Shown: positions 1 to 4,429 of the stretch, one piece after another
How the letters are laid out: every line of letters starts with the position of its first letter
Position numbering within the stretch: the first letter of the stretch is position 1
Source: a virus
Taxonomy: Duplodnaviria > Heunggongvirae > Uroviricota > Caudoviricetes
Strand: one strand, 5' to 3'
Length of the DNA: 4,429 nt
IMG/VR virus record: IMGVR_UViG_2675903289_000007
Position numbers and translations under genes: made by a program
Notes under the pieces: generated by a model
Database searches by the model: none
What the model was told of the DNA's origin: nothing
What the model saw: only the letters and a program-made list of their open reading frames with translations

Positions 1-109
1 ACACTAAATCAGTAAGTTGGCAGCATCACCGAAGTGGTAAAGAAGATAATAAAGAATAATATTTAGGGTTATAGGTCTTAGCCCATTTTAAATGGAAGGC
101 AGACATGCA

Positions 110-444: not shown

Positions 445-464
445 NNNNNNNNNNNNNNNNNNNN
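445..464. other. Run of N (masked or unresolved bases)
   Basis: 20 consecutive n characters. Confidence 1.
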
Positions 465-509: not shown

Positions 510-1187
510 NNNNNNNNNNNNNNNNNNNNNNNNNNNNNNNNNNNNNNNNNNNNNNNNNNNNNNNNNNNNNNNNNNNNNNNNNNNNNNNNNNNNNNNNNNN
601 NNNNNNNNNNNNNNNNNNNNNNNNNNNNNNNNNNNNNNNNNNNNNNNNNNNNNNNNNNNNNNNNNNNNNNNNNNNNNNNNNNNNNNNNNNNNNNNNNNNN
701 NNNNNNNNNNNNNNNNNNNNNNNNNNNNNNNNNNNNNNNNNNNNNNNNNNNNNNNNNNNNNNNNNNNNNNNNNNNNNNNNNNNNNNNNNNNNNNNNNNNN
801 NNNNNNNNNNNNNNNNNNNNNNNNNNNNNNNNNNNNNNNNNNNNNNNNNNNNNNNNNNNNNNNNNNNNNNNNNNNNNNNNNNNNNNNNNNNNNNNNNNNN
901 NNNNNNNNNNNNNNNNNNNNNNNNNNNNNNNNNNNNNNNNNNNNNNNNNNNNNNNNNNNNNNNNNNNNNNNNNNNNNNNNNNNNNNNNNNNNNNNNNNNN
1001 NNNNNNNNNNNNNNNNNNNNNNNNNNNNNNNNNNNNNNNNNNNNNNNNNNNNNNNNNNNNNNNNNNNNNNNNNNNNNNNNNNNNNNNNNNNNNNNNNNNN
1101 NNNNNNNNNNNNNNNNNNNNNNNNNNNNNNNNNNNNNNNNNNNNNNNNNNNNNNNNNNNNNNNNNNNNNNNNNNNNNNNNNNNNNNN
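510..1187. other. Run of N (masked or unresolved bases), 678 nt
   Basis: Continuous n characters; no biological content can be called here. Confidence 1.
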
Positions 1188-1284: not shown

Positions 1285-1740
1285 ATGACTCTGCCAGTAG
1301 ACGGCATCAAACTCCATCGCGGTAACTTCGCGGCCATCGGCCAGCAGATTCAGCCATTGCTGGATGCCGGGCAATGCTTACGCCTGCAGGTTAAGCCGTG
1401 GCGCGAGAAGCGCAGCCTGTCGCAGAACGCGCTCAGCCACATGTGGTACACGGAGATCAGCGAATATCTCATCGCCCGCGGCAAGACCTTCGCTACGCCT
1501 GAGTGGGTCAAAGACGCGATGAAGCACACCTATCTCGGCTACGAAAGCAAAGACCGTGTAGATGTCGTGTCCGGCGAGGTCACCACCGTCCAATCCCTCC
1601 GCCATACGTCAGAGCTGGAAACCGGCGAGATGTACATCTTCCTGTGCAAAGTCGAAGCCTGGGCGATGAATATCGGCTGCCACCTGACAATTCCGCAGAG
1701 CTGTGAATACCAGCAGCTGCGCGATAAGCAGGAGGCGTAA
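1285..1740 (+). CDS. ybcN: YbcN / NinB-family prophage protein (described as a DNA base-flipping protein in DLP12), 151 aa
   Basis: ATG at 1285 preceded by GGGAGG (1273-1278); 151-codon frame. Length, sequence character and position as first gene of the ybcN-ninE-ybcO-rusA-ylcG-Q block match my recollection of the DLP12 nin region. Stop TAA overlaps the next start (TAATG). Confidence 0.8.
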   Translation: MTLPVDGIKLHRGNFAAIGQQIQPLLDAGQCLRLQVKPWREKRSLSQNALSHMWYTEISEYLIARGKTFATPEWVKDAMKHTYLGYESKDRVDVVSGEVTTVQSLRHTSELETGEMYIFLCKVEAWAMNIGCHLTIPQSCEYQQLRDKQEA

Positions 1741-1910
1741 TGGCTACACCGCTTATTCGTGTCATGAACGGGCACATCTACAGAGTATCAAATCGTCGTA
1801 AGCGTAAGCCTGAGCTGAAGCCATCCGAAATACCAACACTGCTCGGATATACCGCTAGCCTGGTTGATAAAAAATGGTTGCGACTGGCAGCAAGGAGGAA
1901 TCATGGCTGA
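1740..1910 (+). CDS. ninE: NinE family small prophage protein, 56 aa
   Basis: Absent from the ORF track (below its length cutoff) but clearly present: ATG 1740 preceded by AGGAGG (1729-1734); translates [56 protein letters not shown]; TGA at 1908-1910. Start overlaps the ybcN stop; stop overlaps the ybcO start. Confidence 0.7.
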   Translation: MATPLIRVMNGHIYRVSNRRKRKPELKPSEIPTLLGYTASLVDKKWLRLAARRNHG

Positions 1911-2193
1911 TTTGAGAAAAGCAGCGCGTGGTCGGGAATGCCAGGTAAGAATCCCTGGCGTATGTAATGGCAATCCTGAAACGTCAGTACTGGCACATAT
2001 CCGGCTGGCTGGATTGTGCGGTACCGGTATCAAACCGCCAGACCTGATTGCCACCATTGCATGTTCTGCCTGTCACGACGAAATCGACCGCCGCACATAT
2101 TTTGTCGATGCTGAGTATGCAAAAGAATGCGCGCTGGAAGGTATGGCGAGAACGCAGGTTATCTGGCTGAAAGAGGGGGTTATTAAGGCGTGA
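1903..2193 (+). CDS. ybcO: YbcO (DUF1364) prophage protein with Cys/His cluster, putative metal-binding nuclease, 96 aa
   Basis: The ORF-track frame starts at 1864, but the ATG at 1903 has AGGAGG at 1893-1898 and gives a 96-aa product beginning [14 protein letters not shown]. Cys/His motifs present ([23 protein letters not shown]). Stop TGA 2191-2193 overlaps the rusA GTG start. Confidence 0.75.
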
Positions 2194-2552
2194 ATACCTA
2201 CAGCATCACATTACCCTGGCCTCCGAGCAATAACCGCTATTACCGCCATAATCGCGGGCGCACACACATCAGCGCAGAAGGGCAGGCATACCGCGATAAC
2301 GTCACCCGAATCATTAAAAACGCAATGCTGGATATCGGCCTGGCTATGCCAGTGAAAATCCGTATTGAGTGCCACATGCCGGATCGCCGTCGCCGTGACC
2401 TGGATAATCTGCAAAAAGCCGCTTTTGACGCACTCACCAAAGCAGGTTTCTGGCTGGATGATGCTCAGGTCGTTGATTACCGCGTTGTGAAGATGCCTGT
2501 TACCAAAGGTGGGAGGCTGGAACTGACCATCACCGAAATGGGGAATGAATGA
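2190..2552 (+). CDS. rusA: RusA Holliday junction resolvase (crossover junction endodeoxyribonuclease), 120 aa
   Basis: 120-aa product [38 protein letters not shown]...[12 protein letters not shown] matches the RusA sequence as I recall it nearly residue for residue. GTG start at 2190 overlaps the ybcO stop (GTGA); purine-rich SD-like stretch upstream. Confidence 0.9.
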
Positions 2553-2689
2553 TGTTTGAGTTTTATATGGCAGAACTTCTTCGCCACCGCTGGGGGCATC
2601 TGCGCTTATATCGTTTCCCCGGTTCTGTTTTGACCGATTACCGAATACTGAAGAATTACGCCAAAACCCTGACAGGAGCAGGAGTATGA
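2549..2689 (+). CDS. ylcG: YlcG-like small prophage protein, 46 aa
   Basis: Absent from the ORF track (short). ATG 2549 overlaps the rusA stop (ATGA); translates [46 protein letters not shown]; stop TGA 2687-2689. Position between rusA and Q matches DLP12 organisation. Confidence 0.6.
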
Positions 2690-2774: not shown

Positions 2775-3167
2775 ATGCGTGATATTCAGATGGTTCTTGA
2801 GCGTTGGGGAGCGTGGGCGGCTAATAATCATGAAGATGTGACCTGGTCGTCCATTGCCGCCGGTTTTAAGGGATTAATTACTTCAAAAGTAAAATCTCGC
2901 CCGCAATGTTGTGACGATGACGCGATGATTATTTGCGGGTGCATGGCCCGTCTGAAAAAGAACAACAGCGATTTGCACGATTTATTAGTAGATTATTATG
3001 TAGTCGGTATGACATTCATGTCACTGGCAGGTAAGCATTGCTGCTCTGATGGTTATATCGGGAAAAGGTTACAGAAGGCTGAGGGCATAATTGAAGGGAT
3101 GTTAATGGCATTAGATATCCGGTTAGAGATGGATATCGTTGCTGTAGGTATGGTTTACCAGTTCTAA
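2775..3167 (+). CDS. quuD: Late-gene antitermination protein Q, small Cys-rich DLP12/phage-82 type; 130 aa as encoded here, with an atypical C-terminus identical to a porin terminal beta-strand
   Basis: ATG 2775 with GGAG about 8 nt upstream (the ORF-track TTG at 2760 is less likely). Product [35 protein letters not shown]... with Cys clusters ([18 protein letters not shown]). The last 11 residues [11 protein letters not shown] are a canonical porin C-terminus; see findings. Confidence 0.8.
3132..3141 (+). repeat. Left copy of 10-bp inverted repeat GATATCGTTG, at the junction where Q switches to porin-type C-terminal codons
   Basis: Exact reverse complement (CAACGATATC) occurs at 3406-3415. 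Sequence identity between the two gene ends stops immediately outside these 10 bp on both sides. Confidence 0.8.
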
Positions 3168-3183
3168 TTTGATTACTAAAAGA

Positions 3184-3337
3184 NNNNNNNNNNNNNNNNN
3201 NNNNNNNNNNNNNNNNNNNNNNNNNNNNNNNNNNNNNNNNNNNNNNNNNNNNNNNNNNNNNNNNNNNNNNNNNNNNNNNNNNNNNNNNNNNNNNNNNNNN
3301 NNNNNNNNNNNNNNNNNNNNNNNNNNNNNNNNNNNNN
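3184..3337. other. Run of N (masked or unresolved bases), 154 nt, inside the Q-porin intergenic segment
   Basis: Continuous n characters. Confidence 1.
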
Positions 3338-3371
3338 GGGGCGTTGCAACGCCCCATTTTTAATAATTTTT
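3338..3371 (+). terminator. Intrinsic (rho-independent) terminator, plus-strand orientation
   Basis: GC-rich stem GGGGCG (3338-3343) / CGCCCC (3350-3355) with loop TTGCAA, followed directly by ATTTTTAATAATTTTT (3356-3371). The 5' flank is masked, so a matching A-tract (bidirectional terminator) cannot be assessed. Sits 170 nt downstream of the Q stop and about 30 nt from the porin stop. Confidence 0.65.
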
Positions 3372-3388
3372 AGTAAACAATTGGCATA

Positions 3389-4429
3389 TTAATTAGAGTT
3401 ATTAACAACGATATCATCGGTAGCAACGCCAGATGCTTTCGTGAAATCGCTCTTATCAATCAGGTTGATTTTGTAATCAACAAAAGTGGACATATTTTTG
3501 TTGAAGTAATAGGTTGCACCTACATCAATATATTCAACCAGGTCCTGATCACCCCACGCACCCAAGTCTTTTCCTTTAGATTGCAGGTAAGCAACGGACG
3601 GACGCAGACCGAAGTCGAACTGATATTGTGCAACTACTTCGAAGTTTTGTGCTTTGTTGGCAATATGGTTATTACCAAAAACAGTCATGTTCTGGGTTTC
3701 AGAATAGGTGGTAGCCAGATAGATGTTGTTCGCATCATATTTCAGACCAGCTGCCCATACTTCAGCATTTTGACCAGATGCATTCAGGCTGTTGTTACCG
3801 TAGATAACCTGATTATTAGTGCGGTCAGATTTAGCATAGGTTGCACCTACACCGAATCCTTCATACTCATAAGTAGTGGAGAAACCGAAACCATCACCAT
3901 TAGCTTCAGTTACGTCAGTGCGGTCATTTTTACCCTGATACTGAGCAGCAAAGTTCAGACCATCAACCAGACCAAAGAAGTCGTTGTTACGATAAGTTGC
4001 AACACCAGTGGTGCGACCAGTCATGAACACATCTGTTTGAGTCCAAGTGTCACCACCGAATTCTGGCAGGACGTCAGTCCACGCACCGATGTCGTATGCT
4101 ACACCGTAGTTACGGCCGTAATCGATGGAGCCGTAGTCACCGAATTTCAGGCCAGCGAAGGCAAGACGGGTTTTATCTTTGGAGGAACCTTGAGATTCAG
4201 CGCGGTTGCCTTTGAATTCATATTCCCACTGACCGAAACCAGTCAGTTGATCGTTGATTTGGGTTTCACCTTTGAAGCCAAGACGGGCATAAGTAGTATC
4301 ACCATCATCTGCATCATTAGAGGAGAAGTAGTGCTTAGCATTAACTTTCCCGTACAGATCCAGCTTGTTACTGTCTTTATTATAAATTTCAGCTGCCTGA
4401 GCAGACATCGCCATCAGTACTGATGCAGC
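3389..4429 (-). CDS. nmpC: Outer-membrane general porin of the NmpC / OmpD / Lc (phage-borne OmpC-like) family; 5' end beyond the window (signal peptide only partly present); C-terminus aberrant (ends DDIVVNNSN, terminal beta-strand and Phe missing)
   Basis: Frame is open to the window edge upstream of the ORF-track Met (reads ...[12 protein letters not shown] then mature [16 protein letters not shown]...). Throughout, the product carries porin hallmarks ([104 protein letters not shown]). Stop TAA (complement) at 3389-3391. Confidence 0.9.
3406..3415 (-). repeat. Right copy of 10-bp inverted repeat (CAACGATATC on plus strand), at the junction where the porin loses its canonical C-terminus
   Basis: Reverse complement of 3132-3141. 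On the minus strand it encodes the D-I-V of the porin tail, after which the frame reads VNNSN-stop instead of AVGxVYQF. Confidence 0.8.

Follow-up and report, generated by a model that had tools for sequence, protein, structure and literature searches.

The nin-Q-porin locus

The window analysed here, 4,429 nt in length, is the whole of scaffold CXCF01000238.1 from a draft genome of Shigella sonnei, and it is the nin-Q-porin portion of a decayed DLP12-like lambdoid prophage. The full gene set of the contig consists of ybcN, ninE, ybcO, rusA, ylcG, the antiterminator (Q) gene quuD and a porin gene (Table 1). In homologous loci quuD is followed by the opposite-strand porin gene and then by essD/rrrD, and the gene order of the scaffold, with the porin converging on Q, fits this scheme. 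The left contig boundary is formed by an IS1 end, the insertion lying 30 nt upstream of the stop codon of replication gene P, the position of which was taken from the related locus L002. The same IS1 junction is present in the sister chromosome, CP023645.1.

In the usual arrangement quuD (plus strand) and the porin gene of the Lc/NmpC type (minus strand) run towards each other, separated by a 188-nt spacer that holds the ipeX region and a terminator. This is the module known from phage PA-2 (lc) and DLP12 (nmpC): a porin gene, a structured 3'UTR of about 167 nt and an intrinsic terminator. In K-12 the nmpC stop codon and the end of the terminator T-run are about 167 nt apart, in agreement with the 167-nt ipeX described as a part of the porin transcript (review PMC12197685). 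Made within this transcript, ipeX represses OmpC (PMC12197685). Its equivalent in the sister chromosome folds with -63.2 kcal/mol (z = -7.7). No Rfam family, including any ipeX model, scored above threshold in the scaffold or in the usual locus L001. Promoter scans of the spacer and of the region upstream of the porin gave nothing convincing, and no position could be assigned to the late promoter pR'.

Table 1. Features of the analysed scaffold
Feature	Position	Strand	Basis or comment
IS1 terminal inverted repeat	1-30		identical to the IS1 end in locus L014, 5791-5820
nin-region genes ybcN, ninE, ybcO, rusA, ylcG	1285-2689	+	ORFs, Pfam families, annotations of homologous loci
Chimeric antiterminator quuD, 130 aa	2775-3167	+	normal body to ...LEMDIV, then AVGMVYQF and stop; ORF; CSP92733.1
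Left repeat arm GATATCGTTG, breakpoint	3132-3141		quuD codons D-I-V plus G; perfect 10-bp pair
Inverted segment	3142-3405		264 nt here, against 231 nt in CP023645.1
Displaced porin tail, AVGMVYQF + TAA, read as the quuD end	3142-3167	+	ORF; usual porin alleles
Displaced porin 3'UTR (ipeX region)	3168-3365	+	now behind quuD; mostly inside the scaffold gap
Scaffold gap (N run)	3184-3337		N run in the NCBI record; true length 121 nt in the sister genome
Intrinsic-terminator-like hairpin GGGGCGTTGCAACGCCCC, then T-run	3338-3365	+	in the usual locus on the minus strand, ending the porin/ipeX transcript
Displaced quuD tail, VNNSN + TAA, now the porin end	3389-3405	-	ORF; comparison with the sister genome
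Right repeat arm CAACGATATC, second breakpoint	3406-3415		porin minus-strand codons D-I-V plus G
Lc/NmpC-type prophage porin body, residues 12-352 of the 360-aa precursor	3406-4429	-	Porin_1/Porin_4; homology to solved porins

A local inversion exchanging two gene ends

The DNA between the two repeat arms is inverted, and the porin and Q genes have exchanged their last codons. All 3,577 sequenced bases of the scaffold match CP023645.1 with 0 mismatches, and only the 42-nt and 68-nt flanks on the inner side of the repeats lie on the opposite strand: positions 3142-3183 and 3338-3405 correspond to 5142-5183 and 4953-5020 of the sister locus, respectively. Outside the inverted segment the scaffold runs on the same strand as the sister chromosome, and relative to the latter no bases were gained or lost at either junction. 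The segment comprises the last 8 porin codons with their stop, the 3'UTR, the terminator and the last 5 quuD codons with their stop. Its re-inversion gives back both usual ORFs exactly. Also in the flipped state both chimeric ORFs are in frame and properly terminated, the usual 127-aa QuuD (C-terminus DIVVNNSN) now closing with AVGMVYQF and the porin with VNNSN. The repeat arms match in 10 of 10 positions and sit exactly at the two breakpoints; they form a perfect pair because quuD and the porin gene encode Asp-Ile-Val by the same codons, followed by G. A 10-bp repeat of this kind occurs no more often than expected by chance.

Both junctions lie within continuous sequence and the scaffold link spans the two pieces at about the expected distance, the segment itself being sequenced only at its 42-nt and 68-nt ends, around a middle of 121 nt that falls in the scaffold gap. 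The record contains three N runs, all of them oversized when compared with the sister chromosome, and the 33-nt difference in segment length was thus rejected as a real insertion. A large inversion between two prophages was discarded as well, since the scaffold joins the pieces locally and neither of them breaks at the repeat.

The flipped arrangement is rare. Neither of its junctions was found in 5,426 complete E. coli genomes, 2,416 of which carry the usual one, and scanning of GTDB genomes, IMG/VR, JGI metagenomes and the INPHARED phage records for the flipped junction also returned none. The chimeric Q was present on a single contig, while the usual Q and the usual porin each occupied at least 1,000, so that within S. 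sonnei the flipped state is private (1 contig versus at least 1,000 with the exact allele). Ten other hypothetical chimeric Q/porin alleles, including those with an imperfect repeat (few alleles), were absent from the collection. A second occurrence came from an unrelated read set, SRR11392911, in which a perfect-repeat allele with 16 synonymous differences shows the same porin-side junction. The inversion therefore probably arose twice. In SRR11392911 one junction was recovered and the contig ends 19 nt beyond the repeat, so the structure there may differ from a simple inversion.

We considered whether the isolate might carry the usual locus, the junctions having arisen either when the library was prepared, from fold-back or template-switch chimeras at the repeat, or through scaffolding or gap-filling errors; alternatively, it may contain a mixed population. 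The scaffold is gapped, with one of the overestimated N runs inside the inverted segment, both pieces end right beside strong hairpins, and fold-back priming at an inverted repeat would be expected to generate exactly these junctions. Moreover, the NCBI assembly is the only source on record for the chimeric Q, with no entry from a Logan re-assembly. However, a 10-bp repeat is far below any assembler k-mer or gap-filler overlap; junction-spanning reads must therefore exist, and on either side they must be more numerous than reads of the usual arrangement. The presence of both reciprocal junctions with a consistent scaffold link and intact base count argues in the same direction, as does the read set from the other strain, where a different assembler (Logan) gave the same porin-side junction as the main path. 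An artefact is therefore unlikely. A fold-back originating from the perfect palindrome GGGGCGTTGCAACGCCCC, with which the right-hand piece begins, was rejected separately, as this palindrome is found in the sister chromosome too.

Porin, antiterminator and 3'UTR after the exchange

Read from the stop codon at 3389-3391 on the minus strand, the porin ORF stays open to the contig end at 4429. Neither a frameshift nor an internal stop codon interrupts the frame, and over residues 12-352 (...DDIV) the product is identical to the usual 360-aa porin encoded by the sister genome; the sole difference is the replacement of the last 8 residues, AVGMVYQF, by VNNSN (codons 3392-3406). The first 11 codons (MKKLTVAISAV) lie outside the contig, which ends 33 nt short of the ATG, so the signal peptide is seen only in part, up to the boundary with AEIYNK. 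Database entries name this protein 'porin OmpD [Shigella sonnei]' and 'outer membrane porin protein LC'; Porin_1 and Porin_4 are the Pfam families detected, and residues 8-337 of the query are homologous to the solved structures of OmpK37, OmpC, OmpK36, PhoE and OmpF (E = 1e-133 to 1e-104).

The first-pass annotation had described a porin gene intact over its whole barrel that ends DDIVVNNSN, without the terminal strand and the C-terminal Phe. The ending is read directly from the ORF and is correct. The alignment proposed there gave the same picture: the solved chains of OmpC, OmpK36, PhoE and OmpF align up to query residue 336-337 and extend 7-8 residues further than the scaffold porin. Nor is the ending a sequencing error, since 3338-3405 agrees in 68 of 68 positions, on the opposite strand, with the end of the usual Q gene and the flank downstream of it. 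As to the barrel, the reading frame is clean over residues 12-352 and retains every loop and 15 of the 16 strands; the final one, beta16, is mostly lost, so that the barrel as such is incomplete.

Usual porin alleles end in AVGMVYQF or AVGLVYQF, and DDIVAVGLVYQF is among their endings. The C-terminal porin signature (Phe or Trp as the last residue, and hydrophobic ones third, fifth, seventh and ninth from the C-terminus) is absent from the DDIVVNNSN tail, which lacks Phe(-1), Tyr(-3), Gly(-6) and the hydrophobic side of beta16. This signature, with Phe at the end and its hydrophobic positions, is the recognition signal for Omp85/BamA; activation of Omp85 by DDIVAVGMTYQF, the C-terminal peptide of PhoE, depends on the last Phe of this peptide, and PhoE deprived of this Phe is assembled with drastically lowered efficiency (PMC1634882). 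Having lost the beta-signal together with most of beta16, the scaffold porin would be assembled poorly or not at all by BAM and then degraded. The inversion thus very probably disables the porin, and the gene is a probable pseudogene.

The view that the product is assembly-defective and silent, yet restorable by re-inversion, was already put forward in the first-pass annotation. It is a fair inference, given that the inversion is the cause and that flipping the segment back restores the ORFs exactly, but silence is a prediction, because PhoE lacking only its Phe keeps its interaction with Omp85 and, when expressed at a low level, is assembled, possibly by means of internal strands ending in an aromatic residue (PMC1634882). 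On these grounds, and with 15 of 16 strands and every loop unbroken, it could be argued that a real inversion leaves a VNNSN-tailed porin that is still produced and inserted, in which case the change that matters would be either the altered Q or the new connection of ipeX and the terminator. We consider this improbable. The loss here goes beyond the final Phe: eight C-terminal residues are replaced by five mostly polar ones, which compromises barrel closure against beta1, and the porin transcript is also without its terminator. Furthermore, nmpC of K-12, interrupted by IS5 58 nt before the stop codon according to the locus annotation and thus cut 19 codons short, is not expressed as a porin (PMC3333887). 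The closest engineered counterpart is PhoE deltaF330, the classic beta-signal mutant, which for lack of the terminal Phe is recognised less well by Omp85/BamA and assembled less well. The C-terminal strand of PhoE, DDIVAVGMTYQF, is nearly identical to the usual form of the porin described here; unlike that mutant, which lacks the Phe only, the present allele is natural and has 8 residues replaced by 5 unrelated ones. As a natural allele without the whole beta-signal it could be used in studies of BAM recognition.

For the transcripts, the inversion would uncouple the ipeX region and the terminator from the porin mRNA and place them behind Q. In the usual loci, as in the PA-2 lc/DLP12 nmpC module, the structured 3'UTR and the terminator are on the porin strand; in the scaffold this link is broken and both are on the plus strand, following Q. 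The new tail of QuuD is located outside the part with homology to Q21, which is confined to residues 8-86.

Origin of the inversion

It had been proposed that the segment forms an ON/OFF arrangement for a phage-borne porin. This proposal is not supported: no recombinase gene lies on the contig, the repeat is at chance level and is not conserved, and none of the 5,426 complete genomes carries the flipped state. A programmed switch would involve a site-specific recombinase that flips the cassette, toggles the assembly signal of the porin and assigns ipeX with the terminator now to the porin, now to Q. The layout does bring fimS to mind, with a 10-bp repeat around an element of about 230 bp. In the fimS switch inverted repeats of about 9 bp enclose an element of about 300 bp, and dedicated recombinase genes are placed alongside; at the locus described here there are no such genes, and the repeat differs between alleles: its arms agree fully only in the 360-aa '...GMVYQF' alleles, while the match is 9/10 for K-12 and for the 365-aa alleles and drops to 8/10 in L002. 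Serine invertases act on crossover sites of about 26 bp.

The P segment of e14, flipped by PinQ, likewise inverts within two opposed coding regions and yields two complete chimeric genes, as do the Mu G (Gin) and P1 C (Cin) segments, and for e14 crossover 16-bp repeats were reported (PMC12529663). The in-frame, properly terminated chimeric ORFs of the scaffold, and the same junction in two unrelated strains, could be taken in favour of a switch of this type. However, the e14 P (PinE/PinQ), Mu G and P1 C systems possess a dedicated invertase and conserved crossover sites, and both their orientations are common, none of which applies here. No recombinase gene was found on the contig, nor, in 13 related loci, anywhere from the nin region to the lysis genes, and the large serine recombinases located far upstream in loci L005, L012 and L013 are of the integrase type and absent from the S. 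sonnei locus. A Din-type crossover core is lacking as well; the AAACC-NN-GGTTT-type consensus gave 0 matches in the scaffold even with 2 mismatches allowed. Finally, an active switch should be met in both orientations far more often than the distribution above (2,416 genomes against none, and a single contig among at least 1,000 of the same allele) would allow. A programmed switch is thus highly unlikely.

Equally slight is the chance that the 231-bp cassette between the GATATCGTTG repeats is a genuine invertible element with low-frequency or induced flips, which would call for a recombinase encoded elsewhere or for a hairpin-driven replication mechanism co-opted as a switch. If true, a single flip would remove the BAM signal, alter Q and move the OmpC-repressing ipeX together with the terminator from a porin transcript expressed in the lysogen to Q, and the two unrelated flipped strains would be rare snapshots of the switch.

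We consider it likely that a rare spontaneous inversion between short repeats took place, leaving the porin as a probable pseudogene. Such an event would need no recombinase and may have proceeded by template switching during replication or by another illegitimate exchange at short inverted repeats. In E. coli, inversions between 12-23-bp repeats lying hundreds of bp apart have reportedly been obtained. Spacer inversions by template switching in yeast share with the present case perfect arms of at least 10 bp at the breakpoints, no gain or loss of bases, recurrence across strains and reversibility; the documented spacers, however, are 2-5 bp long (PMC8604942), whereas the present one measures 231 bp and includes the ends of two genes. 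We see here ordinary biology, which does not reveal a new regulatory system.

A porin without its terminal Phe is thereby explained by a reciprocal tail swap of converging genes that share their Asp-Ile-Val codons, and chimeric 3' ends on converging genes can serve in annotation as an indication of short-repeat inversion. Next to IS5 in K-12 and IS1 in other strains, it is a third kind of natural disruption of the Lc/NmpC porin module. The resemblance to nmpC::IS5 of K-12 covers the locus, the porin family and the neighbours (quuD, converging porin, essD), and in both cases the lesion takes only the extreme C-terminus; in contrast to the IS5 insertion, the short-repeat inversion is exactly reversible, alters Q and carries off the 3'UTR with the terminator.

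Scaffold, gene content and exchanged 3' ends

The 4,429 bp of the window make up the whole of record CXCF01000238.1 in the draft assembly GCA_001251775.1, and the proteins CSP92733.1 and CSP92740.1 encoded there are assigned by the source to Shigella sonnei. The open reading frames and their annotated homologues place the sequence in a lambdoid prophage resembling DLP12, and the genes present are those of its nin-Q region (Table). Three runs of N are also present in the public record and thus represent scaffold gaps, all oversized in comparison to the complete S. sonnei chromosome CP023645.1 (L006); the apparent 33 additional nucleotides in the window result from such an overestimated gap length. 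An island of 45 nt of sequence (465-509) lies between two of the gaps. A minus-strand ORF (138-444), cut by a scaffold gap, encodes a small, hydrophobic, membrane-like protein, whose counterpart in related prophages is annotated as hypothetical (WP_000608370.1). The IS1 junction at gene P is common to the window and L006, in which this IS1 is shortened by another IS.

Table. Coordinates of features in the window
Feature	Position (nt)	Strand	Remarks
Terminal inverted repeat of IS1	1-30		Left contig end; 30 nt before the stop of prophage replication gene P
Scaffold gap	445-464		20 nt; 5 nt in L006
Scaffold gap	510-1187		678 nt; 612 nt in L006
ybcN, ninE, ybcO, rusA, ylcG		plus	ORFs with annotated homologues
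quuD	2775-3167	plus	ORF with annotated homologue; its end is the porin's missing tail
Repeat arm GATATCGTTG	3132-3141		Perfect 10-bp inverted repeat, exactly at the switch point
Scaffold gap	3184-3337		154 nt; 121 nt in L006
Porin gene	3389-4429	minus	Exits at the right-hand end; first 11 codons beyond the contig
Repeat arm CAACGATATC	3406-3415		Perfect 10-bp inverted repeat, exactly at the switch point

Residues 12-352 of the porin show no difference from the usual 360-aa form of this allele, named in the sources 'porin OmpD [Shigella sonnei]' or 'outer membrane porin protein LC'; after them VNNSN replaces AVGMVYQF. Solved chains of OmpC, OmpK36, PhoE and OmpF align through DDIV(V) and continue for 7-8 more residues, absent from the window ORF. 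The last 12 residues of PhoE are DDIVAVGMTYQF, and in the published signature of outer membrane proteins the final residue is Phe and positions 3, 5, 7 and 9, counted back from the C-terminus, are hydrophobic (PMC1634882). The window porin has lost the hydrophobic face of the last strand together with Gly(-6), Tyr(-3) and Phe(-1); it belongs to the general porin family by homology, yet is devoid of the C-terminal signature of that family. The first-pass annotation, which described a porin without the terminal strand signature and the C-terminal Phe and proposed alignment with OmpC, OmpF and PhoE, is borne out by the ORF end and by this alignment, with two caveats: its statement that the barrel is intact throughout does not hold, as most of β16 is missing, and the N-terminal codons lie off the contig.

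At usual loci quuD, the antiterminator Q gene, converges with the porin gene and its 127-aa product ends with MDIVVNNSN. All continuous pieces of the scaffold match L006 with 0 mismatches over 3,577 nt, and opposite-strand matches are confined to 42 nt (3142-3183) and 68 nt (3338-3405), the remainder being on the same strand. Judged from this alignment, the sole difference between the two sequences is the inverted orientation of the 231-bp spacer between the repeat arms. The proposed dependence of the porin tail on inversion of the adjacent segment is reasonable.

Chimeric junctions could be suspected of being an artefact, since the inverted segment contains one of the scaffold gaps and strong hairpins adjoin the ends of both pieces. 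However, a 10-bp repeat does not mislead an assembler or gap filler, so junction-spanning reads must exist and dominate; moreover, both reciprocal junctions were found with no bases gained or lost, the scaffold links the two pieces locally, and an independent second data set makes a pure artefact less likely. We consider such an origin improbable and favour a genuine inversion.

Occurrence and origin of the inversion

The predicted full-length chimeric porin (357 aa) was found on one other contig, Logan SRR11392911_277 (L015, 1-1679), where the repeat arm is perfect and the porin runs into the Q tail at the same junction. The two porin genes differ at 16 synonymous sites and L015 is a mosaic distinct from every fetched locus, therefore neither its strain nor its assembler is that of the window. 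Beyond the repeat this contig extends for 19 nt, to roughly the point at which an assembly graph with k = 31 would join a usual Q-to-Q-tail path, and the reciprocal junction was not recovered there. L015 may represent a simple inversion in a genome with a second Q copy, or else, for example, an inverted duplication around the terminator palindrome. None of ten further chimeras postulated from other alleles occurred in the protein collection. Two independent instances among very many sequenced genomes are in line with a mutation recurring rarely at a perfect short repeat.

Neither flipped junction occurred in 5,426 complete E. coli genomes, 2,416 of which covered the equivalent usual junction used as a positive control, and scans of phage records, GTDB, IMG/VR and JGI metagenomes gave no flipped junction either. 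In a collection of 15 billion proteins the chimeric Q was present on one contig, that of the window, and the usual Q and usual porin of exactly the same allele on at least 1,000 contigs each. Given the clonality of S. sonnei and the very large number of its sequenced genomes, the flip is private to this isolate.

The layout is similar to that of serine-invertase switches that exchange gene ends, for instance the P segment of e14, which PinQ flips to give two complete chimeric genes (PMC12529663), and to fimS, where short repeats flank a ~300-bp element. What defines these systems, however, is that a recombinase gene is present, that the sites are conserved and that both orientations occur in populations; the window shares none of these features. 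No recombinase gene was found on the contig, nor in the interval from the nin region to the lysis genes in 13 related loci, and no Din-type crossover core in the window. The repeat is at chance level, because in 34% of shuffles of the region one or more perfect inverted 10-mer pairs occur within 300 nt; it exists only owing to the same D-I-V codons in both proteins, and just 9/10 of it match in K-12 and in the porin alleles of 365 aa, 8/10 in the related locus L002. With such a non-conserved repeat, no recombinase gene and no flipped complete genome, the ON/OFF arrangement suggested earlier is unsupported, and a genuine rare or inducible switch seems very improbable indeed.

Inversions with spacers of hundreds of bp are known in E. 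coli. The mutation most likely arose by spontaneous inversion between the two 10-bp arms, for which no recombinase would be required. Template switching at inverted repeats inverts spacers, needs arms longer than 9 bp, recurs independently and is reversible (PMC8604942), although the spacers in those events are far shorter than the one in the window.

Consequences for the porin

In PhoE, removal of the final Phe alone drastically reduces assembly and is lethal at high expression, with some assembly persisting at low expression, and the C-terminal peptide devoid of this residue no longer activates Omp85 (PMC1634882). On the basis of these effects the window porin is predicted not to be productively assembled. 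The earlier view of an assembly-defective product restorable by re-inversion is reasonable as a prediction.

The nearest precedent is nmpC of K-12, with IS5 inserted 58 nt before the stop (L003, 3592-4786) and no expression of the porin (PMC3333887). Decay of the S. sonnei prophage is already far advanced, with gene P interrupted by IS1, so the inversion may be selectively neutral. In L006 a full 768-bp IS1 (6631-7398), beyond the end of the window, precedes the porin ATG by 391 nt, and transcription of the porin may thus already be poor in this lineage. Independent insertions (IS1 in CP172169.1, IS5 in K-12) appear to have disrupted the porin and its 3'UTR repeatedly.

The ipeX region and terminators

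The 188-189 nt of spacer between the two stop codons at usual loci accommodate the porin 3'UTR and, on the strand of the porin gene, an intrinsic terminator. RNA of this 3'UTR forms a very stable fold (-63.2 kcal/mol, z = -7.7; L006 4985-5157, minus strand, equivalent to window 3168-3365), and in K-12 the porin stop is ~167 nt from the T-run. The small RNA ipeX of DLP12, 167 nt long and part of the porin transcript, down-regulates OmpC (review PMC12197685). By position and length the porin 3'UTR corresponds to ipeX; no Rfam family matches this region. In CP172169.1 (L014, ~5053-5820) an IS1 with target duplication CAGAAGGTT resides within the Q-porin spacer.

The terminator hairpin and T-run of the window point the opposite way compared with usual loci, behind quuD. 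The porin transcript would be deprived of its terminator and ipeX, both now placed after Q; by position the locus belongs to the Lc/NmpC-ipeX module, yet the porin-ipeX link of this module is broken. In S. sonnei the 18 nt of the terminator stem, GGGGCGTTGCAACGCCCC (window 3338-3355; L006 5003-5020), form a perfect palindrome; at this place a loop of 4 nt (TGAA or TGAG) occurs in other alleles.

Scans located no late promoter. The interval from the porin start to the holin gene contains a hairpin with a T-run after it, oriented towards the late genes (~6650-6690 in the related locus L007; 130-175 in L015); this hairpin may be the late terminator tR', and if so, the late promoter would lie outside the inverted segment.
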